DNA from: Candidatus Micrarchaeota archaeon
Lineage (GTDB): Archaea > Micrarchaeota > Micrarchaeia > Norongarragalinales > Norongarragalinaceae
Length of the DNA stretch: 64,000 nt
NCBI GenBank assembly: GCA_037444485.1
Contig: JBBIMI010000001.1
Span: forward strand, 15,526 to 79,525
Direction: 5' to 3'
In this document: piece after piece, positions 8,465 through 32,828 of the stretch
Position numbering within the stretch: the stretch's first letter is position 1
Layout: every line of letters begins with the position of its first letter
Position numbers and translations under genes: made by a program
The notes under the pieces: generated by a model
The model's database searches: none
The model's input: only the letters and a program-made list of their open reading frames with translations
What the model was told of the DNA's origin: nothing

Positions 8465-8490
8465 CGGTTAGTGTGTATAATGTTATTCGG

Positions 8491-8607
8491 TTGGCGGCCA
8501 TAGGAGGGTGGAAACGCCCAGTCCCATTTCGAACCTGGAAGCTAAGCACCCTTACGACGTGGCGAGTACTGGAGTAATTCCGGGAAAGCCTGTTGCTGCC
8601 ACCACTC
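8491..8607 (+). rRNA. rrn5: 5S ribosomal RNA.
   Basis: ttggcggccatagg...gtcccatttcgaacc.ggaagctaagc...ggcgagtactg..gtaattccgggaa.gc..gctgccacc matches the archaeal 5S consensus, and the two ends pair. Exact ends are +/- 3 nt. Confidence 0.8.
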
Positions 8608-17134: not shown

Positions 17135-17650
17135 GTGAAAAACAAAACGATTCTTGCAAAGCACGAAATCCTCGAGCGCATAGTGCGCGACAAGCTCGTC
17201 GAAGGATTCGTTGACTTGAAGCGCCAGCTTCAGCCGGCAAGCATGGACTTAACCCTAGAAAGCGTTCACGCGCTCGAAGAAAAAGGCGCGCTTGACTTCG
17301 ACAACACGCAGCGCGTAATTCCAAAAACCCGCGAGTTAAAGTTTAACGCGGACAATTGGCTCGACCTCGCGCCAGACACTTACAAAATCCGCTTCAAGGA
17401 AACAATTCGTTTGCCGGACGACTTGAGTGCAATAACCTTATCCCGTTCTTCACTCGCCCGCTGTGGCGCGTTAACGCACGCAGGCTGGTGGGACCCAGGC
17501 TACTGCGGACGCGGAGAAGCATTGCTTTCAGTCGGCGGTAAAGGCCTGCGCTTGAAGAAAAATGCGCGCGTGACGCAAGTTATTTTCTTAAAGTTGAACG
17601 ACAAAGCACGCGAATTATACTCAGGAATACATAATAAAGAAAACATTTAA
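17135..17650 (+). CDS. dcd: dCTP deaminase / dUTPase-fold family protein.
   Basis: QPASMDLTL motif and length typical of archaeal dCTP deaminase. Confidence 0.7.
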   Translation: MKNKTILAKHEILERIVRDKLVEGFVDLKRQLQPASMDLTLESVHALEEKGALDFDNTQRVIPKTRELKFNADNWLDLAPDTYKIRFKETIRLPDDLSAITLSRSSLARCGALTHAGWWDPGYCGRGEALLSVGGKGLRLKKNARVTQVIFLKLNDKARELYSGIHNKENI

Positions 17651-18113: not shown

Positions 18114-18552
18114 AAGCAGTTGCATGGACTTAAAGCAAACTAAACTAAAACTACGACTTTAAAAGAAGAAGATGAAGAACTTAAGAAAAAAGAAAAAAAG
18201 AAAACAAAAAAAAGAATTAAAAAGAAAACAAAAAATAATCAGGGAATTACTAGGGAGAACTGGAAGAGCTTGAGGAAGAACAGGAAAAAACAATTAAAGA
18301 AAAAGAAACGTTGAACGCGCTAAGCGCGTACGAAGATGGTTTTAAAGTGGCTAGCGTTGACTTTCTGTTCGCAATCGACGACGTGATTATGGTAGTGGGC
18401 TTAATCCTGATTTTGTTTACTGGCGAACTAGTGTGGGGCGGACTGCTGTTCATCACTGGACTCGTCACACACTTATCAGGATTCTGAAACCAGCAGTTCA
18501 CTGGCATGGCGGCCTGCTCAAGTTTTTATTTCAGTCTACGCAATTTATTTGC

Positions 18553-19257
18553 ATGCTAGACTTTAATGCACTTATCGACAAGTACTTGTACCGCGAGCAC
18601 AAACCCAAACAAATAGGGCGTTACTACCCAAGCGAAGTCGGAAACTGTATCCGCAAAACATGGTTTTCGTATAAATACCCGCAAGAGTTCGACGTAAACA
18701 AGTTACGCGTCTTCGAAATGGGCAACATCTTGCACGAGTACGTAATCAAAGTCTTTAAAAGCGAAAAAACGCCTGAAGTAAAACTCTTAAAAACAGAATT
18801 CCCCTTCCAACTTCCAGTAGACGATTTTACTATCAGTGGACGCGTTGACGACTTGCTTCTGCTTACAATAGAAAACAAGGAACTCTTGGTTGAAGTAAAA
18901 TCAACTAGCAGCATCGGCTGGATGAATAAACCCCAACCCAACCACGTAATGCAACTGCAATTCTACATGCACGCGACTGGGGTGCACGACGGCGCGTTGT
19001 TGTACATCGAAAAAAACACGCTTCAAGCCAAAGTCTTTAACGTGCCTTTCACGCAGAACGCTGCAGACGAAGCTTACGCCCGCTTTAAAGCGTTGCACGC
19101 ATTCTTAAAGCACGATGAACTCCCGCCTGCGGAAGCCAAACTAGAGAAAGAAATCAACTGGTTCTGTAAGTACTGCGAGTACAAGCCAAAGTGTGACGCG
19201 GCCGGACTCGCGCAAACAGAACACGAGAAAGTCAAGCCGAGATGGACTAAAGCTTAA
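18553..19257 (+). CDS. cas4: Cas4-family PD-(D/E)XK exonuclease (RecB-like nuclease with a 4-Cys cluster), solo.
   Basis: N-terminal GNCIRK Cys, D...EVK and QLQFY nuclease motifs, and C-terminal C-x2-C-x5-C (FCKYCEYKPKC). No other cas genes or CRISPR repeats in the window. Confidence 0.65.
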   Translation: MLDFNALIDKYLYREHKPKQIGRYYPSEVGNCIRKTWFSYKYPQEFDVNKLRVFEMGNILHEYVIKVFKSEKTPEVKLLKTEFPFQLPVDDFTISGRVDDLLLLTIENKELLVEVKSTSSIGWMNKPQPNHVMQLQFYMHATGVHDGALLYIEKNTLQAKVFNVPFTQNAADEAYARFKALHAFLKHDELPPAEAKLEKEINWFCKYCEYKPKCDAAGLAQTEHEKVKPRWTKA

Positions 19258-19994: not shown

Positions 19995-20656
19995 TTTTCA
20001 CCAATTCCTTGAACACTAAACACCATGATGGTGGGCGGCATGATAACGAAAAACAAGAAAACAATTCAAGTATTTAAATATTGTTATGGTATATAAAAAA
20101 TTGTGGAAGGCTGGTTTTCGCGTTTTTTTACCCTCTAAGAGCGCGAGAGGTTACTCAAGCCGCCCAAAAACACGCTACAATACCGTAACGATGTAACGTA
20201 GCGTTTATGCGGATGCACTAACTCGTTATCGTTATAGTGTATTTATTTCCTGTAAAACGATTAGTGGAAGTTAATACTAATTCAATATAATTCCAGTAAT
20301 CGCACGATTTTTGTTTTCCTGTTTTCGAAACAATCGAATTCAAAAGAATTCAAAACAATTCCAGAATTCTTGCAGGTGCGACTCCAAAAAATTGGTTTAG
20401 AGAAATGAATGCAATCGAATGCGCGCACGTGAACCGGCACAAGAATCAGCAGAACCAGCACGTGAACCAAATAACAACTGGCAGAAAAACAAGAGAGAAA
20501 ACACGAAAAAGAAAACACGAAAAAAGAAGAAATCGGAATCAAGAATTAAGAAAATTGAAGCCTAGCCCAAAACAAAAAACAAGAAAATAGAAAAACAAAA
20601 CAGAAAATAGAAAAACAAAAAACAAAAATTAGTTCATACCGCGATGAACTTATTCG

Positions 20657-20950
20657 TTACTCGATGTATTTTTGGTGTTTTAGCGAAAATAATCGCAATG
20701 GCTCGCTTTTTCGTGGTTTTATTTCAAGTAAAACGTTGGAAGTGCGCTTAGTTTTCGAAAAAGCAATTTTACGATTTTTTTTGAAGAAATCAAGAAGAAG
20801 ATGGAACGCTTCAGCGACGCTAGTCGCCTTTTCGTTATTCGCTTGAAGTTCGCCGGCCAAAGCATGGATTTTAGGAAAATCCTCTTCAAAAATTCGAATC
20901 AAACGTGTTTTTTTCTTTGCCTTTTGAGCCAATCCTCTTTTTTTCGCCAT
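20657..20950 (-). CDS. Small basic hypothetical protein, lone gene inside an AT-rich island.
   Basis: 97 aa with a K/R-rich N-terminus (MAKKRGLAQKAKKKTRL). Flanked by more than 600 bp of AT-rich non-coding DNA on each side. Confidence 0.4.
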   Translation of the reverse strand: MAKKRGLAQKAKKKTRLIRIFEEDFPKIHALAGELQANNEKATSVAEAFHLLLDFFKKNRKIAFSKTKRTSNVLLEIKPRKSEPLRLFSLKHQKYIE

Positions 20951-21662
20951 TCAAACCACCATTTATATATTTACAAGATTAACATTTTAAATAAAGTAGA
21001 TTTTGTTTATAAATTTATCTCTTATTAAGTGTTTTTTTATTTTATATTAATAAAATATAACTTTGTTGATGATGTAAATAAAATTTACAAAAATTAATGA
21101 ATAATGGGTTAGAGAGAGTTCTATTGCTTTTGTTGTGATCGTATGGTTTTGTGCGTGAGTAGTTTGCGTAGATTTTAAATTAAATAATTAAATTAAATAA
21201 TGTATTTTAGGGATTAAACTGCCTACTATGCAATTTTTCAAGTTGTTTTCCAAAAGTTTTTCAAAAAAATGCTTCGAATTGTGGCTATACCATAAATTAT
21301 GAATTTTAGAAAAAATTGTTGAAAAAATCGCTGATTTAAAAAATACGTAGCCGCATTCGTATTGCTGTGTTTGAAAACAAAAGTTTTATCCAACATTTTG
21401 CATTAAAAATAATTCGAATTGAGAAAACTGTGAGAAAACTAGCTAAACCCAGAAAATAAACCCAGAAAACTGCCTATTTTATTTTATTGTTATTTTGTTG
21501 TTTTTGTTGTTTTCGAGTTTAGGCAAAAGAATGCGTTCGAAATTCACTGAAATTAAATGAAAATAAATGAAAAATTAATGGAAGTTGGGTCGGCGAGCGT
21601 TTAAATGCAGTTCTGCACACTGTATTCCTCATGGTGTATTTTTCATGGAATTAGGTCTTTTC

Positions 21663-24586: not shown

Positions 24587-25057
24587 TCAACCCACTACCC
24601 TCGGTTTTCTGGTGATTACTGTTTCATTCAACGCGTTCGGGTGCATCGCAAAATAATCAGCTGCTTCCTTGTTTAACGCGTCGTTCGGATTCGGTTTTTC
24701 GAGTAATTGCTTTAACGCTTTTACTAGGCTCACTAGCGTCGTGCCTTCACTCCACTCGTTTAAAAGCTGAATGCATACTTTTCCGTCTTCGCTGCGAATG
24801 TTCGGGTGAAAGATTGGAGTCAACCAAGTGACTTCGATTCCGCCAGCGTAAGGGTATTCGCGCTTCAAATCGATTTGAATAGAGTGCGACTCGCGTTTTT
24901 GTAGCGAGTCCCCGTTCTTAAACAAGCTGACGCCGCGCAAGCTTATTACGTAACTCGTCTTCGACTCGTTAACCTCAAAATTTTCTTTGCTGGCAACCAT
25001 TTGTTGAAACTCGCTTTCAAGCCTGCGTCTCCAAATCGCTTCAGGAAGCATTGGCAT
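24587..25057 (-). CDS. Ubiquitin-conjugating enzyme (E2, UBC fold)-like protein.
   Basis: FHPNIRSEDGKVCIQLLNEWSEGTTLVSLVKALKQLLEKPNPNDALNKEAADYF fits the E2 HPN motif, catalytic Cys and PNP..P.N.EAA signature. Confidence 0.75.
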   Translation of the reverse strand: MPMLPEAIWRRRLESEFQQMVASKENFEVNESKTSYVISLRGVSLFKNGDSLQKRESHSIQIDLKREYPYAGGIEVTWLTPIFHPNIRSEDGKVCIQLLNEWSEGTTLVSLVKALKQLLEKPNPNDALNKEAADYFAMHPNALNETVITRKPRVVG

Positions 25058-25095: not shown

Positions 25096-25359
25096 TCAAC
25101 CGCCAGTCGGATCAGGCATCAACAGCAAACGACTCCCTTCCTTTAAACCAGCGTCTGCCACCGTAATTTCAGGATTCAAAACCTTATCATCAACAGTAGA
25201 TAAAACAAAACGGTCTTTTAATTGAAGGTTTTCAGCGAGCACTTCCAAAACAGAGCTGATTGTGAAGCCCGGCTCTACCGCAACAACTATTTCCTTCCCG
25301 CTCGTGGTATGCGTTACTGTAATGTTGAATTCTTTCGAAGGCGAACTTTCCGATTCCAT
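25096..25359 (-). CDS. Ubiquitin-like beta-grasp modifier ending in a free Gly-Gly.
   Basis: 87 aa. FNITVTHTTSGKEIVVAVEPGFTISSVLEVLAENLQL...LKEGSRLLLMPDPTGG* aligns in pattern with ubiquitin and terminates in GG-stop. Confidence 0.6.
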   Translation of the reverse strand: MESESSPSKEFNITVTHTTSGKEIVVAVEPGFTISSVLEVLAENLQLKDRFVLSTVDDKVLNPEITVADAGLKEGSRLLLMPDPTGG

Positions 25360-25459
25360 GCAAAAACCACCTCAATTAAAGCACGTTAGTTAAAGCAAAA
25401 GATATTTGAACACAATATAATAATAAGTGTTGCGGTGAACAAAAGAGGTTTTTAAACCC

Positions 25460-25936
25460 GTGAATGAAGAAAAGAAAAAACCAAAGACAATAAGTGAGAA
25501 AGACGCGGTTCAAGAAGCTGGCGTTAAAGAAACCGTTGAAGAAGAAAGCAAGGAAACCGCTGAATCTAAAAACGAAAACACTAAAGAGGCGGAAAAACAA
25601 CTAGTGGAAACAAGTGAAACGAGTAAAACAAGCGAAAAAGAAGAGAAGAAGCCTAGAGTGAAAGTCGTTGTAGAACCAGTTTTCGGCGAACGCGGAACAA
25701 AACCCGTCATAACCGTCACTAGCGAGAAACCGCGTTTAGTGCGTGAAGTAGAAGAACAAGCTGCTCGAGACGTTCTGCCAACACAATCTCCGCCGGGCAC
25801 GCCGTTAGAAGCGCGGAAACCCTTGACGCGTGAAGAAGTAGTTGAGAAAGCGAAACAGGTTTGGGAAGAGAACAAGCGGAAAAAAAGTGAAGGTAAGTTC
25901 TTCAACCGCTTAAAACGCGCGTTGAAACTCGGTTAA
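25460..25936 (+). CDS. Highly charged (E/K-rich), probably disordered protein upstream of the JAMM gene.
   Basis: 158-aa ORF. Low-complexity KETAESKNENTKEAEKQ is followed by a short conserved-looking PVFGERGTKPVITV segment. Confidence 0.35.
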   Translation: MNEEKKKPKTISEKDAVQEAGVKETVEEESKETAESKNENTKEAEKQLVETSETSKTSEKEEKKPRVKVVVEPVFGERGTKPVITVTSEKPRLVREVEEQAARDVLPTQSPPGTPLEARKPLTREEVVEKAKQVWEENKRKKSEGKFFNRLKRALKLG

Positions 25937-25955: not shown

Positions 25956-26417
25956 TTGATGTTCGAGGTTTACGTTCACGAGAAAGTCTTAAAGAAAGCT
26001 GAAAAACACTGCGCACGCGAAGCAGAGAGAGGACTAGAAGCGATGGGTTTGCTTTTGGGAAACGCGTTCACGCACAAGGGCCGTGAGTACGTTGTAGTCG
26101 AAGACTATTCCACTGGCGAGAATGAAGCAACAAGCGTTTCGGTGCGCTTTACGAAGAAAGCGTTTTCTAAACTCGCGAAAGACTTCGAGGAAGGTGGACG
26201 CATAATCGTTGGTTGGAGCCACGCACACCCGTCTTACGGTTGCTTCCTCTCAGCAACAGACTTGAAGACTCAAAACAATTACTTTAACGAAGATTTCCAC
26301 GTCGCGCTCGTCATAGACCCAACGCACAAAACGTCGAACGGTTTTGAAAAAAAGTTTTTCAAACTCTGCGCTGAAGGCTACCGCGAAGCTTCCTACGCGG
26401 TAATCAAAGAAAAGTGA
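25956..26417 (+). CDS. JAMM/MPN+ metalloprotease (Rpn11-like isopeptidase).
   Basis: EAMGLLLG ... VGWSHAHPSYGCFLSATD gives the E-x(n)-H-x-H-x7-S-x2-D JAMM motif. Confidence 0.8.
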   Translation: MMFEVYVHEKVLKKAEKHCAREAERGLEAMGLLLGNAFTHKGREYVVVEDYSTGENEATSVSVRFTKKAFSKLAKDFEEGGRIIVGWSHAHPSYGCFLSATDLKTQNNYFNEDFHVALVIDPTHKTSNGFEKKFFKLCAEGYREASYAVIKEK

Positions 26418-27427
26418 AAAAAATGCTTGGACAAAGCGAGACGCAGGAAAAAAACGCGAACGCACCCGCTGCTGCTGGCGCGTCAGCCGCAACTCCAGCG
26501 GCGAAGACGACAGTAAAGACAATGGTGGAGACGCGCAGAAAGAAAGCAGTCGTAAAGAAAACCGCGATTAAGATAACTAAGTTTGATAAAGCGCTCGCGC
26601 AACAAATAATTTTAGGCGAAACTAACCTAAAGAAAATCCAGGAAAAAATGCGTGTCGACGAAAAACAATTTTTTGAACGCGTGAAGAAACTAGGCGACGC
26701 TGGTTACATTGTTATTAATGAATCAAGGGAAGCCTGGTTTGGAATAAAAGGCTTTGAAGCCTTCGCCAACCAATTCAAGAAACTTGCGTCTACGCCGACG
26801 CCGAAATCCCGCGCGCGACTGGAAGAAACGCCCTCCGCGGCGCAAGCACCGCAAGCGCAGCAGACGCCAGCGCAGCAAGCGCAGCAGACGCAACAAACGC
26901 AGTCTCCCTTCACACAGCCCACGGTTCCGCCTGCGTTAGACCCTAGGCAAACTTTTCTTGCTGAAGCGACTGCAAAAGAAAAAGATGAGGTCAACGTCGA
27001 CTTGAGCGAATTGCTTAAAAAAGGTGCTCCTAAACCAAGCGACTCGATTTTCGTAAAACGCCAAAACGAAAAATCTTCTAGAGTGCTCTCTCGCGCGTTT
27101 GAAACAATTAAAACCAAGGATCCTGCAAAAGTCTCGACTGCAGGAGAATTAATTGAAGCGATTAAGAAAAGTAAGCCGAGCAGAGAGGCGTTGATGGTTG
27201 ACGGCGGCGAGGCTTGCGAATTGTGTAAAGCAAATTTTAAACTCGCTGTTGCAGGAGACGGCAACCCAAAGTACGGCCACTGCTTCTGCGGAGCAGCCTA
27301 CCATAAAGACTGTTACGAGTCCCTCGCAGGCAACAGCGGAAAATGCGTGCGCTGCGGCAAGAAACTCAAACTCGAGTTAAGCAAACAAAGCGAAGAAGCG
27401 GTTAAAGAAATAAAGGAATTATTCTGA
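26414..27427 (+). CDS. C4HC3 RING-like (treble-clef) zinc-finger protein and candidate E3. It has an N-terminal alpha-helical domain and a Q/A/P-rich linker.
   Basis: C-terminal C-x2-C-x17-H-C-x-C-x4-H-x2-C-x10-C-x2-C (CELCKANF...GHCFCGAAYHKDCYESLAGNSGKCVRCGK). The start overlaps the JAMM stop (GTG 26414 or ATG 26423). Confidence 0.55.
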   Translation: MKKMLGQSETQEKNANAPAAAGASAATPAAKTTVKTMVETRRKKAVVKKTAIKITKFDKALAQQIILGETNLKKIQEKMRVDEKQFFERVKKLGDAGYIVINESREAWFGIKGFEAFANQFKKLASTPTPKSRARLEETPSAAQAPQAQQTPAQQAQQTQQTQSPFTQPTVPPALDPRQTFLAEATAKEKDEVNVDLSELLKKGAPKPSDSIFVKRQNEKSSRVLSRAFETIKTKDPAKVSTAGELIEAIKKSKPSREALMVDGGEACELCKANFKLAVAGDGNPKYGHCFCGAAYHKDCYESLAGNSGKCVRCGKKLKLELSKQSEEAVKEIKELF

Positions 27428-27465: not shown

Positions 27466-28227
27466 TCAATGCACTGGGCAACTAACGCGTTTCGGAACTT
27501 CAAACAACCGTGCAGTCGACTTCAAACCGTCCAGAAAGAGGAACTTGCCTGCAAGCGTTTTCTCGCCGAAAGAATCACTGTGCACGAGCTTCAAAAACTC
27601 GTTCACTTGAATTCCTGCAACAACGCTCGTCGTCGTCGGAAGCGCCGGATTCTTTGGGTTAATCCAATCAACTAACTCTCCCACACAATTGTACTTTTGC
27701 CACAAAAGCTTGTAATCGCTTTTACTCAACCCGCACTCGAGACACGAAGAAGGAGCGCGCACTACTTGCACTTTCCCGAAAAACCCGGTTGTTCCCCCGT
27801 CAATCAAAGGAATCTTGCTGTAACACTGGGCGTTCAAATGCAGTCTCGCACCCAAGTTGTCGAGACAACCGAAAGCGTAATCGAAATTTTCGTAAAAATC
27901 TTCAGGAAGTTCTTCAATCTTCTCAGTGAAAACGCGTACCTCGGCAGTCGGATTGATTCTTGCAGCTTCGCGTTTTACCACATCAACCTTCGGCAAGCCC
28001 ACGTCTCCCTCGCTAAAGAAAACACAGCGATTCAAGTTCGCTTTCACAATCGAATCGAAGTCTACAAGCGAAATGTTTTTTACGCCGAGTTGAAGCAAGA
28101 GCTTGACGACTTCATTTCCAAGCGCGCCAGCGCCGACTACAAGCACGCGCGCCTCCGCGACTTCAGTCTGCCTCCAACCCTTCACGCGCTTTTGCCTATC
28201 GTGAACGTCCTCATCAATCGCAACCAT
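27466..28227 (-). CDS. E1-like ubiquitin/Ubl-activating enzyme (ThiF/MoeB/UBA family) with a zinc site.
   Basis: VLVVGAGALGNEV Rossmann motif, GCLDNLGARLHLNAQC catalytic segment, CLECG...CPVH zinc ligands. Confidence 0.75.
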   Translation of the reverse strand: MVAIDEDVHDRQKRVKGWRQTEVAEARVLVVGAGALGNEVVKLLLQLGVKNISLVDFDSIVKANLNRCVFFSEGDVGLPKVDVVKREAARINPTAEVRVFTEKIEELPEDFYENFDYAFGCLDNLGARLHLNAQCYSKIPLIDGGTTGFFGKVQVVRAPSSCLECGLSKSDYKLLWQKYNCVGELVDWINPKNPALPTTTSVVAGIQVNEFLKLVHSDSFGEKTLAGKFLFLDGLKSTARLFEVPKRVSCPVH

Positions 28228-29122: not shown

Positions 29123-29686
29123 ATGGACGAGTATAAAGACAAACACAAAGGCGCGCAGCGACTCTATGTTTGCGACGAGCGTGGAAACACTAGCGGCGAG
29201 ATCGTAGAACGATGGAAAGCCCACACTACGCCTGGAGTCAAACACTTGGCTTTCGGAATTCTTGTTTTAAACGAAAAAAACGAGATAGTCTTACACAAGC
29301 GGCCAGCGCGCAAAGTCGGCGGCGGGGTTCTGGACATTCCCGTCAGCCACATTCTTGAAGGCGAAACTAGAGAACAAGCCATGAACCGTTGCTTGAAAGA
29401 AGAATACGGCATAACCGCAAAACGCTTCGAGCATTACCCCGGCTTTTCGTATTATGAAGAGTATCCTGACGGAACTTGCGAAAACGAGTACTGCTTGATA
29501 AGCGTGATAAGACACGAAGGCAAGTTTAAACCCAACCCGGAGGAAGTTGAAGGCGAACTAAAAGTTTTTCCAGCAAGTAAAGTCGTCAAAGAAATAAGAA
29601 AACATCCGCGGAAATACTCTATTTGGTTTAGGAAAGCGATAGAATTGTTAGCCAACGACGAGCGCGGCAGAAAACATTTGGTTTAA
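29123..29686 (+). CDS. idi: Isopentenyl-diphosphate delta-isomerase type 1 (Nudix family).
   Basis: HLAFGILVLNEKNEIVLHKRPARK..G.LDIPVSHILEGETREQAMNRCLKEEYGI...GTCENEYCLISV parallels E. coli Idi (HLAFS.WLFN...GHP..GE..A..RR...ELG...ENEVCPVF). Confidence 0.6.
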   Translation: MDEYKDKHKGAQRLYVCDERGNTSGEIVERWKAHTTPGVKHLAFGILVLNEKNEIVLHKRPARKVGGGVLDIPVSHILEGETREQAMNRCLKEEYGITAKRFEHYPGFSYYEEYPDGTCENEYCLISVIRHEGKFKPNPEEVEGELKVFPASKVVKEIRKHPRKYSIWFRKAIELLANDERGRKHLV

Positions 29687-29718
29687 AACATTTGGTTTAA
29701 ACTTATTGAGTGATAAAC

Positions 29719-30966
29719 TTATCGATTGAAAATAATCTCCATGCTTTCCGGCTCCAAGCGCACGCCTTCATTACTCACACCCAAATTAAGGACTTCAATC
29801 TTTTTTTCCTTATAACCGCGCCAGAATTCGCGCACTTTTTCCGCAGACTCTTCGCTTAAGCATATCGCGGCTATCGAGTCGCCGCCGCCAGCGCCTGGAA
29901 GCTTGGCGACGAAAGCGCCGTGCTTAAGCGATTCGTTGACGAGTTTGCTTAGTGTCGGGGGCTCTATTGGGGCGCCGCTTTTTTCGCCTAGTTCGCGCGT
30001 TAATTCGCGCCCGCGTTCGAATTCTTGTTTGAAGCGCGTGAATAACTCGAGTTCGCTTGATGGTTTTTGTGGTTTCTGTGTGGTTTTCTTTGATTCGGCG
30101 AGCGTGAGGGTTTTGGCGTAAAGCGAAGGGTTTTGTTTCGCGAGCGCATTGATTTTTTCGAGTAAAGCTATTGCTTTCGCGTTTGCTTCGTTGAGTTCCC
30201 GCATTAAATTCGCGTACTCTTGCGGGTTTGTTGTTTTCCACGCGTTTATTTTTTTAACCATTTCGCTGGTTGAAGCGCTTTCGCCGGCAATGTTTCCGAC
30301 TACTGCGGTGAAGGAGGGCGGCATTGCGAGTGGTTTTGAAGAGTAATCCCAAGCGCTCTCTAGAGCTTCCAGAAAGTCTTTCTTCTTTAAGATGCTTGGG
30401 CTGTAACGCGAGTAAACGTGTCCGCCGTAAGTTGCGGCGGCAACGTCGAAACCGCTGCCTATCTTGCCTTGCGCCACGCAGTGAACCAACTGCGCTGTTT
30501 TGTGCAGTAATTCTTTTTCTTTTAACGCGTCGATTCCGTGAAGCGCGAGTACCGCGGCTGTCGAGGCTACTGTGACTGCTGCTGAAGCGCCGAGTCCGGC
30601 TTTAGTAGCGCCTAGTCCGAATGCTGGGTCGCTGAACGTGGTTAATTCTATTCCGTTGAAAGAAATGTTTTTGCGGATAAAGTAATTGAAGCAAGTTTCG
30701 ACGGCGCCCCGCATGAATTTTGTGGCTGAATCTTGTTCTGGGGTTAACGGGTTTTTGAAAACCAGTTTGTTTAACTCGAATGCTGCTTCAGCGAACGCGT
30801 TGAATTGCGGGGCGTTTAACACGACCTTGTTTTCGTCAAGCTTTCGCGCGCGCACGAAAACGCGTTTGTTTACTCCGGTAACGAAGGAAACATTTGGTTT
30901 TTCGAGAACCGAATACCCGCCAATCCAAAGTATTTTCCCGGGCGCTGACGCAATGCAAGAATTCAT
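29719..30966 (-). CDS. Phosphomevalonate kinase (GHMP kinase, ERG8-like).
   Basis: SAPGKILWIGGYSVLE N-terminal signature of PMK. GHMP motif GLGASAAVTVA. Confidence 0.7.
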   Translation of the reverse strand: MNSCIASAPGKILWIGGYSVLEKPNVSFVTGVNKRVFVRARKLDENKVVLNAPQFNAFAEAAFELNKLVFKNPLTPEQDSATKFMRGAVETCFNYFIRKNISFNGIELTTFSDPAFGLGATKAGLGASAAVTVASTAAVLALHGIDALKEKELLHKTAQLVHCVAQGKIGSGFDVAAATYGGHVYSRYSPSILKKKDFLEALESAWDYSSKPLAMPPSFTAVVGNIAGESASTSEMVKKINAWKTTNPQEYANLMRELNEANAKAIALLEKINALAKQNPSLYAKTLTLAESKKTTQKPQKPSSELELFTRFKQEFERGRELTRELGEKSGAPIEPPTLSKLVNESLKHGAFVAKLPGAGGGDSIAAICLSEESAEKVREFWRGYKEKKIEVLNLGVSNEGVRLEPESMEIIFNR

Positions 30967-30970
30967 TTCA

Positions 30971-31738
30971 CTACCTTCTCAAGACTTCCTTCAACACTTG
31001 TTTAGCGTTTTCAAGAATAAAATCAGCTTGTTTTGCGAGTTCTTCACGCTTGCTGTTTCCAGTTAAAACGCCTATTGTTTTCACTCCAGCTCGTTTTCCA
31101 GCAATTATTCCTGCAAGCGAATCCTCTACGAGAACAACTTCTTGAGGGAAAACGCCTAGTTTTTTTAACGCGTAGTTTATCATTGACGGGCTTGGTTTTT
31201 CCTTTAAACGTTTTTCCTTCAAACCAGCGTCTTCAGTAACCAGCAAATCAACTTTAAAACCGAATTTCTTAATTAACGATGAAGCAAACAGTTTGTTGGC
31301 GTTCGTGATTATCACGGTTTTAAAGCCTTTATTACGCAGTTGTTTCAACAAACTCGCGGAACCCTGAATTTTTTTCGCGAGGTTCAAGAGTCTTCCAGGA
31401 TTCCTGCGAATTCTAGAGTACTCGCGGACAGCGACTTCACTTTCAACAAGTTCAGCTTTAGAAAGATTGTTTACCGCCTTGCGTAGTTTTACGCGTGTCG
31501 CTTGAAGACGCGCTCCGCTTCCCGCTTTCTTAATGCCTAACTTGTTTAAAGCGATGAGCGCTTTAAAAAAATCTTGTTTTTTATGAAACTCTGGAAGAGA
31601 GCGAATCGCGTAAACGTCGCGCACTCGAAAACACGGTTTTACGCCGGCGTGCGCTAAGGCTTTCTCTACAACCTTTTCTTGAAACCTACCGTAATCCACT
31701 AGCACTCCTTCGAGGTCGAAAAAAACGGCGCGAATCAA
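30971..31738 (-). CDS. HAD-superfamily hydrolase.
   Basis: VFFDLEGVLVD motif I and ITNANK/GVKTIG..TGN later HAD motifs. Sits between the MDD and PMK genes on the same strand. Confidence 0.65.
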   Translation of the reverse strand: MIRAVFFDLEGVLVDYGRFQEKVVEKALAHAGVKPCFRVRDVYAIRSLPEFHKKQDFFKALIALNKLGIKKAGSGARLQATRVKLRKAVNNLSKAELVESEVAVREYSRIRRNPGRLLNLAKKIQGSASLLKQLRNKGFKTVIITNANKLFASSLIKKFGFKVDLLVTEDAGLKEKRLKEKPSPSMINYALKKLGVFPQEVVLVEDSLAGIIAGKRAGVKTIGVLTGNSKREELAKQADFILENAKQVLKEVLRR

Positions 31739-31754
31739 ACGCAGACACCAACCT

Positions 31755-32828
31755 TTATTTCACGATTATTCTGCCGCTTGCCTCATCATACCAGTGTTCG
31801 CGAATGTTGCCGCTTGAGTCAAGCAAGTGTTCGTTAACGTACTTCGGCCCAAAACCAACTTTGCAAACCAGTATTTTCTGAACGCCTTCAACTTCAGCCA
31901 AAACTTTTTTTACTTCATCAACGTGTTTTTCAACAGTAAAAACGTGAGCGTTGGGGCCAGCGTCGAAAGTGTAACCAGCCTTTATTTCGCCCGCAGCGTT
32001 GTTAAAGTCTATTATTGAAGCCATTATTTGTTTTGAAACGTCGTTCAAATACGTTATTGGCGGCCACGTGTCGAGCATTACCGCGTGCATGTTGCTTGAT
32101 TCACGCATAGTCGCTTCGAGAAGCGTCGGCAAGTCTTTGCGTAGAATCGCGTTGCGCACGGTTTCAAGAGTCTTCGGCAAGTCTCGAAGCCGCTTTTGAT
32201 AAAGACTGCTTGTCGCCACCGTCTGCTTCATTCCAGCGCGAGAAGAAATTTTTTTCTTTCCTTGCTCTACGATTGCAATCACGTTACGCAACTCCAGCCA
32301 ATGCGACGGCGGCGCGATTTGAATTGCTAACGAATCGCTGCCGTCGCTCTTGACTCCGCGTTTCCACTCGACGAAACCGCCGAGAACACTGCGGCAAGCG
32401 CTGCCTGAACCCAAGCGCGCGAGAATAGATAATTCGCTTGAAGACAAGTTGAGGCCGGCTGCTTTGGAAGCAGCGCAAGCAAGCGCAGCCAAGCCGGCAG
32501 CGCTTGACGCGAAGCCAGCCGCGGTCGGAAAACAATTGAGTGAAACTATTCTTGCTTTTGCGTTTATTCCGGCTTTTTCTCGAATGACGTTCAATTGTTG
32601 CATGCGTTCAGCTGTTTCCTTGTCGTTCAAGTCAAGCTTTCTTCCATTCAACCAAACTTCGTCTTCCGCGAATTTTTCTGAAAACATGACGGTCGTACGC
32701 GTTTTCAGCGTTTCATCCATAGTCACAGAAATGCTTCCTTCCTGCGGCAGAATCAGTTTTTCGTCGCGTTTCCCCCAGTATTTTACTAACGCGATGTTTG
32801 CAGTTGCTTCAACAGTTGAAATACTCAT
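31755..32828 (-). CDS. mvd: Diphosphomevalonate decarboxylase.
   Basis: ANIALVKYWGKRDE signature. GHMP GFASSAAGLAALA. Confidence 0.8.
   Translation of the reverse strand: MSISTVEATANIALVKYWGKRDEKLILPQEGSISVTMDETLKTRTTVMFSEKFAEDEVWLNGRKLDLNDKETAERMQQLNVIREKAGINAKARIVSLNCFPTAAGFASSAAGLAALACAASKAAGLNLSSSELSILARLGSGSACRSVLGGFVEWKRGVKSDGSDSLAIQIAPPSHWLELRNVIAIVEQGKKKISSRAGMKQTVATSSLYQKRLRDLPKTLETVRNAILRKDLPTLLEATMRESSNMHAVMLDTWPPITYLNDVSKQIMASIIDFNNAAGEIKAGYTFDAGPNAHVFTVEKHVDEVKKVLAEVEGVQKILVCKVGFGPKYVNEHLLDSSGNIREHWYDEASGRIIVK

Follow-up and report, generated by a model that had tools for sequence, protein, structure and literature searches.

A gene for a small ubiquitin-like protein (Ubl) in the genome of a Candidatus Micrarchaeota archaeon (GenBank assembly GCA_037444485.1, contig JBBIMI010000001.1, positions 15,526 to 79,525; this stretch of 64,000 nucleotides [nt] is referred to as the window) raises the question of whether the Ubl is made ready for conjugation and, if this is the case, what is left to do for the JAMM metalloprotease that is encoded next to it. 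The first-pass annotation of this locus had proposed that the Ubl is encoded in its mature form, with a free C-terminal Gly-Gly, and would need no C-terminal processing before adenylation by an E1 enzyme, in contrast to the Caldiarchaeum precursor that needs Rpn11 cleavage. It had further proposed that the JAMM enzyme acts only in deconjugation and that the N terminus of the Ubl is an unusual acidic extension. The analysis reported here bears out the claims on the C terminus and qualifies the last two. It also places the gene in a larger context, since the Ubl is clustered with genes for an E1, a UBC-type E2, a RING-type protein, for which the assignment has moderate support, and an Rpn11-like JAMM protease. 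Judged from sequence, structural models, and analogy with known systems, it is probable that the Ubl is the modifier of a complete ubiquitylation cassette of eukaryote-like type that is encoded on the chromosome of this member of the DPANN archaea.

Read on the minus strand, the Ubl open reading frame (ORF) starts with an ATG at 25359-25357 and ends with the last Gly codon at 25099-25101, followed directly by a TGA at 25098-25096, which confirms the proposed end of the protein. The translation has 87 residues (MESESSPSKEFNITV...LLLMPDPTGG*; complete sequence, MESESSPSKEFNITVTHTTSGKEIVVAVEPGFTISSVLEVLAENLQLKDRFVLSTVDDKVLNPEITVADAGLKEGSRLLLMPDPTGG), and a Shine-Dalgarno-like box, GAGGTG, is located 8 nt 5' of the ATG. 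No other ATG, GTG, or TTG start was found in frame ahead of the conserved EFNITV core, and an alternative start that would remove the N-terminal extension was therefore rejected; the ATG itself has the Shine-Dalgarno box. A plus-strand ORF of 55 amino acids (aa) that overlaps the Ubl gene (25222..25389) is unsupported and considered spurious. The exact protein and DNA sequences are also present on a 114-kb NCBI contig, and the Logan assembly of run SRR11582170, which is independent, contains them as well, with an identical 3' region. Orthologous loci were retrieved from 58 GTDB species genomes, all of them from Micrarchaeota, and in 48 of these a stop codon directly follows the Gly-Gly: TGA in 29 cases, TAA in 14 (locus L049 among them), and TAG in 5. 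The Gly codons of these orthologs differ synonymously. At the protein level, 90 of the 120 clusters of the family end at Gly-Gly, so that the mature end is the norm in this lineage.

Could the stop codon nevertheless stem from faulty sequencing or assembly, or be recoded, so that the true product carries a tail and needs cleavage by the JAMM enzyme? Tails do occur in about 17-25% of the orthologs, and read-through of the TGA would add just 12 residues, the next in-frame stop being 12 codons on. On the other hand, the same sequence was recovered in the second assembly, the stop follows the Gly-Gly directly in 47 other genomes with all three stop codons being used, and the E2, E1, JAMM, and Lhr genes of the window are also terminated by TGA, so that there is no sign of recoding. 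Error and recoding at this codon are thus effectively refuted, and the probability left to them is negligible.

The family to which the Ubl belongs is tight and isolated. When 5.8 billion proteins were searched through a word index, 121 homologs were returned with E values between 1e-25 and 1e-44, matches that are far beyond chance, and all named homologs among them are from Micrarchaeota, Micrarchaeia, or Norongarragalinales. Scanning 1.84 billion cluster representatives in full with a HMMER profile added about 8 single-domain or truncated relatives, with E values up to about 1e-14 (about 9 with the family member P0116), and the matches that ranked lower were mostly long multi-repeat proteins. 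P0127, the one sequence of these that was read, consists of tandem ubiquitin-like repeats, and the nearest relatives outside the family appear to be of this ubiquitin type. An AlphaFold (AF2) model of the Ubl, built on an alignment of 55 sequences (predicted local distance difference test [pLDDT] value of 83), has the topology beta-beta-alpha-beta-beta with a beta-grasp core at residues 10-82. A Foldseek comparison of this model with the PDB placed ubiquitin, NEDD8, SUMO, and TINCR on top, with a probability of 1.00 and template modeling (TM) scores of 0.74-0.88. In the structural alignments, the Ubl shares 27-31% identity with ubiquitin and NEDD8, as opposed to 18% with Caldiarchaeum ubiquitin (6fno_D). 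An hhalign comparison with human ubiquitin (84% probability, 29% identity) aligned the two C termini with Gly-Gly on Gly-Gly.

This alignment also relates conserved residues of the family to positions of human ubiquitin. K22 corresponds to K11 of ubiquitin and is a Lys in 98% of the family, and K59 corresponds to K48 and is a Lys in 88%. R50, the counterpart of R42, is invariant, and V52, the counterpart of I44, is Val in 98% of the sequences and Ile in the rest. K48 of the Ubl is invariant and has no counterpart among the ubiquitin lysines. The PDPTGG tail, which corresponds to LRLRGG, is invariant in all 121 aligned family sequences; it is proline-rich and acidic, whereas the end of ubiquitin is basic. 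Taken together, sequence and model support the assignment of the Ubl as a ubiquitin-type modifier of the beta-grasp fold with a free C-terminal Gly-Gly.

The genes surrounding the Ubl gene are listed in Table 1. The affinities of E1, E2, and JAMM were derived from a comparison of their best matches among PDB sequences, and the catalytic residues of all three are conserved across 45-55 orthologs. The best matches of the E2 are eukaryotic E2s. Its gene, which has a ribosome-binding site of its own (GAGGT), begins 38 nt past the Ubl stop codon, and the two genes probably share one transcript. In 54 orthologs, conservation of the HPN motif and the catalytic Cys reaches 90% or more (FHPNI...GKVCI). 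The JAMM gene, about 600 nt away from the start of the Ubl gene, is transcribed divergently from it. The JAMM protein has an intact catalytic motif made up of E28, H89, H91, S99, and D102; E28 is conserved in 55 orthologs, in which the HxH motif, S99, and D102 show conservation of 90% or more. Its best PDB match is the Rpn11-like protein of Caldiarchaeum (6fjv, 1e-12), followed by CSN5 and Rpn11.

Table 1. Features of the window and median identity of their orthologs to the window protein
Feature	Position	Strand	Length	Characteristics	Median identity
Ubl modifier gene	25096..25359	minus	87 aa	made in mature form; C terminus ...LLLMPDPTGG, stop codon TGA	71%
UBC-type E2	24587..25057	minus	156 aa	Pfam UQ_con, 70.6 bits (cutoff 27); H84-P85-N86, catalytic Cys95	53%
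K/E-rich low-complexity protein	25460..25936	plus	158 aa	directly upstream of JAMM	
Rpn11-like JAMM/MPN+ metalloprotease	25956..26417 (ATG 25959)	plus	152-153 aa	Pfam JAB, 47.6 bits (cutoff 22.5)	47%
Putative E3, RING-like	26414..27427	plus	337 aa	C-terminal C4HC3 finger	32%
N-terminal part of RING-like protein	26414..26800	plus		contains conserved domain of ~75 residues	
Minimal E1	27466..28227	minus	253 aa	Pfam ThiF, 174.5 bits; convergent with RING-like gene	59%
DTD2				flanks the cassette	40%
Lhr				flanks the cassette	48%
Mevalonate block	29123..32828			Nudix protein, GHMP kinase, HAD hydrolase, diphosphomevalonate decarboxylase-like protein; beside cassette	
Short ORFs	20000..21585			~1.5 kb upstream of Lhr; short ORFs only, no family match (e.g., 97 aa, 20657..20950)	
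Cas4-like PD-(D/E)XK nuclease	18433..19257				
dCTP deaminase	17135..17650				
5S rRNA gene	8490..8604	plus		stand-alone; Rfam, 79 bits	

The E1 consists of a single ThiF adenylation domain (residues 19-252) with no Cys-domain insertion and no ubiquitin-fold domain (UFD). It contains the motifs GAGALGNE (nucleotide loop), DRQKR, NLNR, and CLDN as well as a putative Zn site formed by C162, C165, C250, and H253. The candidate thioester residue, Cys181, is conserved and located in the crossover loop 16 residues past the CxxC motif, which is the location of the reactive Cys in ThiF and MoeB. The protein aligns end to end with MoeB and ThiF, which have 249-251 aa, and its PDB matches are led by the adenylation domains of Uba1, UBA2, and UBA3 (6e-29), ahead of MoeB (4.5e-19) and ThiF. 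Although similar in size to MoeB and ThiF, this E1 invariably occurs together with a UBC E2.

The RING-like protein is the candidate E3. Its finger, formed by C268, C271, C290, C292, H297, C300, C311, and C314, has the spacing C-x2-C-x18-C-x-C-x4-H-x2-C-x10-C-x2-C, which was found in 111 of 113 homologs, and is preceded by a low-complexity Gln/Pro/Ala-rich linker. The Foldseek matches of an AF2 model of this protein (pLDDT of 71) are almost all RING E3 domains, including those of RNF165, RNF13, RNF4, and HRD1, and on sequence and model the designation as RING-like has moderate support. The segment C-x-C-x4-H fits exactly neither the RINGv consensus, in which the corresponding spacing is x7, nor the PHD consensus. 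The eight ligands of the finger would fit the cross-brace pattern of Prok-RING_1, to which all 30 members compared have weak matches, and the top structures are E2-binding RING domains. Both Prok-RING family 1 (PF14446) and RINGv/C4HC3 fingers have been reported in archaeal ubiquitin toolkits (PMC4327156). The conserved N-terminal domain (approximately residues 50-125; FD..L......G....VD...F..R...L) gave one sub-threshold MarR_2/TrmB match in 10 homologs, and one homolog was annotated by JGI as 'Lrp family'. This domain may be a winged helix; if so, the E3 might be associated with nucleic acids. The conserved neighbor of the cassette is the Lhr helicase.

A further gene is likely to be the sixth component of the cassette. 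In 47 of the 54 loci with a detected JAMM gene, the K/E-rich ORF has a homolog that occupies the corresponding position and strand. Two motifs recur in these homologs, RD[IV]xP and, at the C terminus, a basic/hydrophobic one (...FFxKLKxxLG[LF]x). The protein, for which no match to Pfam or NCBIfam was obtained, could be an accessory factor of the cascade or one of its substrates.

The gene order DTD2(-) E1(+) RING(-) JAMM(-) Ubl(+) E2(+) Lhr(-), with signs relative to the Ubl gene, was found without exception in those loci of the 58 genomes that have long enough flanks. The cassette is flanked by housekeeping genes, namely, those for DTD2, the Lhr helicase, the mevalonate pathway, and dCTP deaminase. 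Within this neighborhood, the Ubl gene is the most constrained of all (Table 1), recalling eukaryotic ubiquitin. No tRNA genes were detected in the 64-kb window.

Two other identities of the Ubl and its neighbors have to be weighed against a ubiquitylation cassette. The Ubl might be a sulfur carrier of the MoaD/ThiS type that serves a ThiF-like enzyme in cofactor synthesis or tRNA thiolation and for which a free Gly-Gly is the normal state. The E1 indeed has the size, the Zn motif, and the crossover-loop Cys of MoeB/ThiF, and some homologs of the Ubl were automatically annotated by JGI as 'molybdopterin converting factor small subunit'; dual-function Ubls, such as SAMP2 and Urm1, are also known. 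However, structure and profile comparisons fit ubiquitin, NEDD8, and SUMO and not MoaD or ThiS, the E1 scores far under all NCBIfam cutoffs for MoeB, ThiF, and UbaA and fits Uba1 better than MoeB, and neither MoaE nor ThiG is found among the neighbors. The universal linkage to a UBC E2 with HPN motif and Cys, a RING-like protein, and an Rpn11-like JAMM adds to this, as none of these is needed for sulfur transfer. Fold, profile, and neighbors thus lend no support to a MoaD/ThiS identity, which we regard as highly improbable.

The combination of Ubl, E1, E2, and JAB proteins also resembles that of antiviral conjugation systems, either bacterial Bil or CBASS-Cap2/Cap3, in which case the JAMM protein would be the regulator. 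PADLOC gave weak matches of the JAMM protein to JAB/BilC models (1.5e-7 to 1e-4; BilC, 1.3e-4) and of the E1 to E1-E2/BilD models (BilD, 4.8e-6), whereas the Ubl and the E2 matched neither the BilA nor the BilB model, so that membership in a Bil or CBASS defense system was rejected. Defense islands are typically patchy, whereas the cassette has a fixed housekeeping neighborhood (DTD2, Lhr, mevalonate) and one gene order throughout the phylum; the Ubl is unusually conserved instead of fast-evolving, and E2, E1, and JAMM best match eukaryotic and Caldiarchaeum proteins. A role in antiviral defense is consequently very unlikely.

Several observations do weigh against a eukaryote-like ubiquitylation cassette. 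The match of the Ubl to the Pfam ubiquitin family (PF00240) is below threshold (17.1 bits as compared with a gathering cutoff of 25.4), and that to Rad60-SLD (PF11976) is a marginal pass (24.3 bits with a cutoff of 23.8). For the RING-like protein, the Foldseek probabilities reach 0.99 but the E values are at least 0.06, which makes these matches weak, and Prok-RING_1 and zf-RING_2 match 29-30 of 30 members with scores that all stay below the Pfam gathering thresholds. The E1 is devoid of the Cys domain and the E2-recruiting UFD of Caldiarchaeum, Asgard, and eukaryotic E1s. Furthermore, the sequence is compatible with a second role of the Ubl as a sulfur carrier, which it may have.

What the analysis shows directly is the set of genes, the fold, the catalytic motifs, the degree of conservation, and the stop codon after Gly-Gly; for the biochemical steps of the proposed ubiquitylation cascade, we infer the following course. 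The Ubl, made already ending in Gly-Gly, would be adenylated as translated by the nearby ThiF-type E1 of 253 aa and would probably be handed over as a thioester from Cys181 of the E1 to Cys95 of the co-transcribed UBC E2. It would then be joined to lysines, with the C4HC3 RING-like protein assisting, and the Rpn11-like JAMM would undo the modification and, in lineages whose Ubl has gained a tail, also trim this tail.

Tails beyond the Gly-Gly were observed in 10 of the 58 genomes and in 30 of the 120 clusters. They measure between 1 and 71 residues, examples being S, T, N, KR, LF, AK, and NGF, and even a near relative of the window Ubl, P0003, ends in GG-LF. Over the core, most tailed Ubls share 80-96% identity with their closest untailed counterpart and are more similar to it than to any other tailed Ubl, which indicates that tails were gained many times. 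Some tails are common to clades, namely KR and a conserved tail of 27-28 residues starting with HSSL. The latter was found in a clade formed by P0088, P0116, and P0120 (N terminus, MGYNISVTHSTSGKEIVLEVEE) and has the pattern HSSL[VM]xLxPxxxxNxxxxL...; unlike the other tails, which are short and random-looking, it may be a functional propeptide. An origin of tails by plain read-through into the 3' spacer of an untailed relative was considered for L052 and L053 but gained no support, as their downstream DNA is not collinear.

What, then, is the role of the JAMM enzyme? Caldiarchaeum ubiquitin (CsUb) is synthesized as a precursor of 87 aa, in which a propeptide of 9 residues, CGEPIRRAA, blocks activation by E1 until it is removed by CsRpn11, whereas CsUb-GG that has been truncated by a stop codon is activated by E1 directly and without Rpn11; CsRpn11 cleaves precursors and conjugates alike (PMC5654768, PMC6043591). 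The contrast between the window Ubl and this precursor, drawn in the first-pass annotation, is therefore correct, and as the gene stops at Gly-Gly, no C-terminal processing should be needed here before adenylation. Since the window Ubl has no precursor tail, the JAMM enzyme would lack a maturation substrate in this organism and would act after conjugation only, in deconjugation and recycling; possible substrates would be target conjugates, chains, and auto-adducts of E1 and E2. However, the JAMM gene is present in every locus with sufficient flank, be the Ubl tailed or untailed, and its catalytic residues are kept in both groups. The enzyme family thus most likely does both jobs, like CsRpn11 and like BilC, which pre-processes its Ubl and cuts conjugates (PMC10557695), and by this analogy it has very probably kept the capacity to trim a peptide bond, which would account for how frequently a lost stop codon behind the Gly-Gly has been tolerated. 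The claim that the JAMM enzyme acts only in deconjugation is accordingly fair as regards the substrates available here, but not as a property of the enzyme, because tailed relatives keep the same JAMM.

The view of the N terminus as an unusual acidic extension was overstated. Extra residues are present, as the consensus of the family starts with M-x-EFNITV and the window Ubl is about 7 residues longer. An extension of at least 5 residues occurs in about 9% of homologs, with about 90% of the members having none. The window Ubl and its three closest relatives have 7-9 extra residues of differing sequence (e.g., N termini MESESSPSK, MDSVNPNST, and MESASTSAN), the net charge of the extension is only -1, and residues 1-10 have low confidence in the AF2 model (pLDDT of 60). 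The extension is thus a short, variable, unconserved, and probably disordered segment that is limited to a few close relatives, and sequence comparison and model gave no evidence of a function.

The Haloferax system, which reportedly comprises the Ubls SAMP1, SAMP2, and SAMP3, made ending in Gly-Gly, the MoeB-sized E1 UbaA without a Cys domain, and the desampylase HvJAMM1, a JAMM enzyme that serves in removing conjugates and not in maturation of the Ubls, resembles the Micrarchaeota cassette in its Gly-Gly-ending Ubl and its minimal E1. However, no E2 or E3 is known to be needed in the SAMP system, whereas the Micrarchaeota cassette always comes with genes for a UBC E2 and a RING-like protein, and in fold and sequence the window Ubl is nearer to ubiquitin than to the MoaD-like SAMPs. 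Membership in the SAMP system was rejected, as the NCBIfam models for SAMP-E1 (UbaA) and the desampylase gave 87 bits with a cutoff of 450 and 23 bits with a cutoff of 130, respectively.

Closer links exist to the compact operon of Caldiarchaeum subterraneum (Aigarchaeota) and the related clusters of Asgard archaea, in which a beta-grasp ubiquitin with Gly-Gly is likewise encoded along with a ThiF-type E1, a UBC E2, a small protein of the RING type, and a JAMM enzyme resembling Rpn11 (PMC5654768, PMC6043591, PMC3082918). The window JAMM is nearest to CsRpn11 among solved structures, and the structure search with the Ubl also retrieved CsUb. The two systems differ in that the Ubl stops at Gly-Gly in 48 of the 58 loci, the precursor form being that of the other 10, and in the E1, which at 253 aa has neither the Cys domain of the cluster I/II E1s of Caldiarchaeum and Asgard nor the C-terminal Ubl/UFD that these usually have (PMC5654768). 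They also differ in the E3 candidate, which has 337 aa, an extra N-terminal domain, and the C4HC3 pattern, in the conserved sixth, K/E-rich gene, and in the DPANN host. With the bacterial BilABCD system, the cassette shares the presence of Ubl, E1, E2, and JAB genes in one operon, but Bil has no RING protein and many BilA proteins need processing, and the cassette is chromosomal and phylum-wide, not a mobile defense island (PMC10557695). In eukaryotes, URM1, ATG12, and FAT10 are translated in mature form, whereas ubiquitin, NEDD8, and SUMO are made as precursors (PMC11354881). The ready-made C terminus of the window Ubl is thus an established alternative among Ubls, although ubiquitin and NEDD8, to which it is nearest in sequence, are always made as precursors.

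On its own, a Ubl that ends in Gly-Gly is ordinary, given that SAMPs, URM1, and ATG12 do likewise and that truncated CsUb-GG works in vitro, and it amounts to a modest variant. More notable than this end is the presence of a minimal, eukaryote-like ubiquitin cassette throughout a phylum of the DPANN lineage. No prior account of a ubiquitin system in Micrarchaeota or DPANN archaea was found in the searchable literature, which is incomplete; the Micrarchaeota genomics papers examined do not mention ubiquitin, and the survey of Grau-Bové lists archaeal ubiquitin systems in Aigarchaeota, Crenarchaeota, and Euryarchaeota only. Taken together, the data also permit a more far-reaching reading, which is possible but which we put forward tentatively and would not call probable. 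Micrarchaeota, which lie outside Asgard and TACK, would hold a hitherto undescribed, vertically conserved, chromosomal cascade of eukaryotic type, in which a ready-made ubiquitin, constrained like its eukaryotic counterpart and with lysines at the K11 and K48 sites, is used by a minimal E1 without Cys domain or UFD that charges a UBC E2, by a RING-type E3, and by an Rpn11-like deubiquitinase. If true, this would point to many binding partners of the Ubl and perhaps to chain signaling, and the repeated gain and loss of tails would show that the deubiquitinase buffers the position of the stop codon.

The coexistence of tail-less and tailed Ubls with the same protease offers a natural experiment that separates maturation from deconjugation by Rpn11-like enzymes, and the pairing of a minimal E1 with a canonical-looking UBC E2 poses the concrete question of how E2s were charged before multidomain E1s evolved. 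As the proteins of the cassette are small and soluble-looking, its reconstitution in vitro should be straightforward. With its conserved gene order and orientation, the cassette would extend the known range of eukaryote-like ubiquitylation into a genome-reduced lineage of the DPANN archaea, and its distribution bears on whether archaeal ubiquitin systems are of ancestral or transferred origin.

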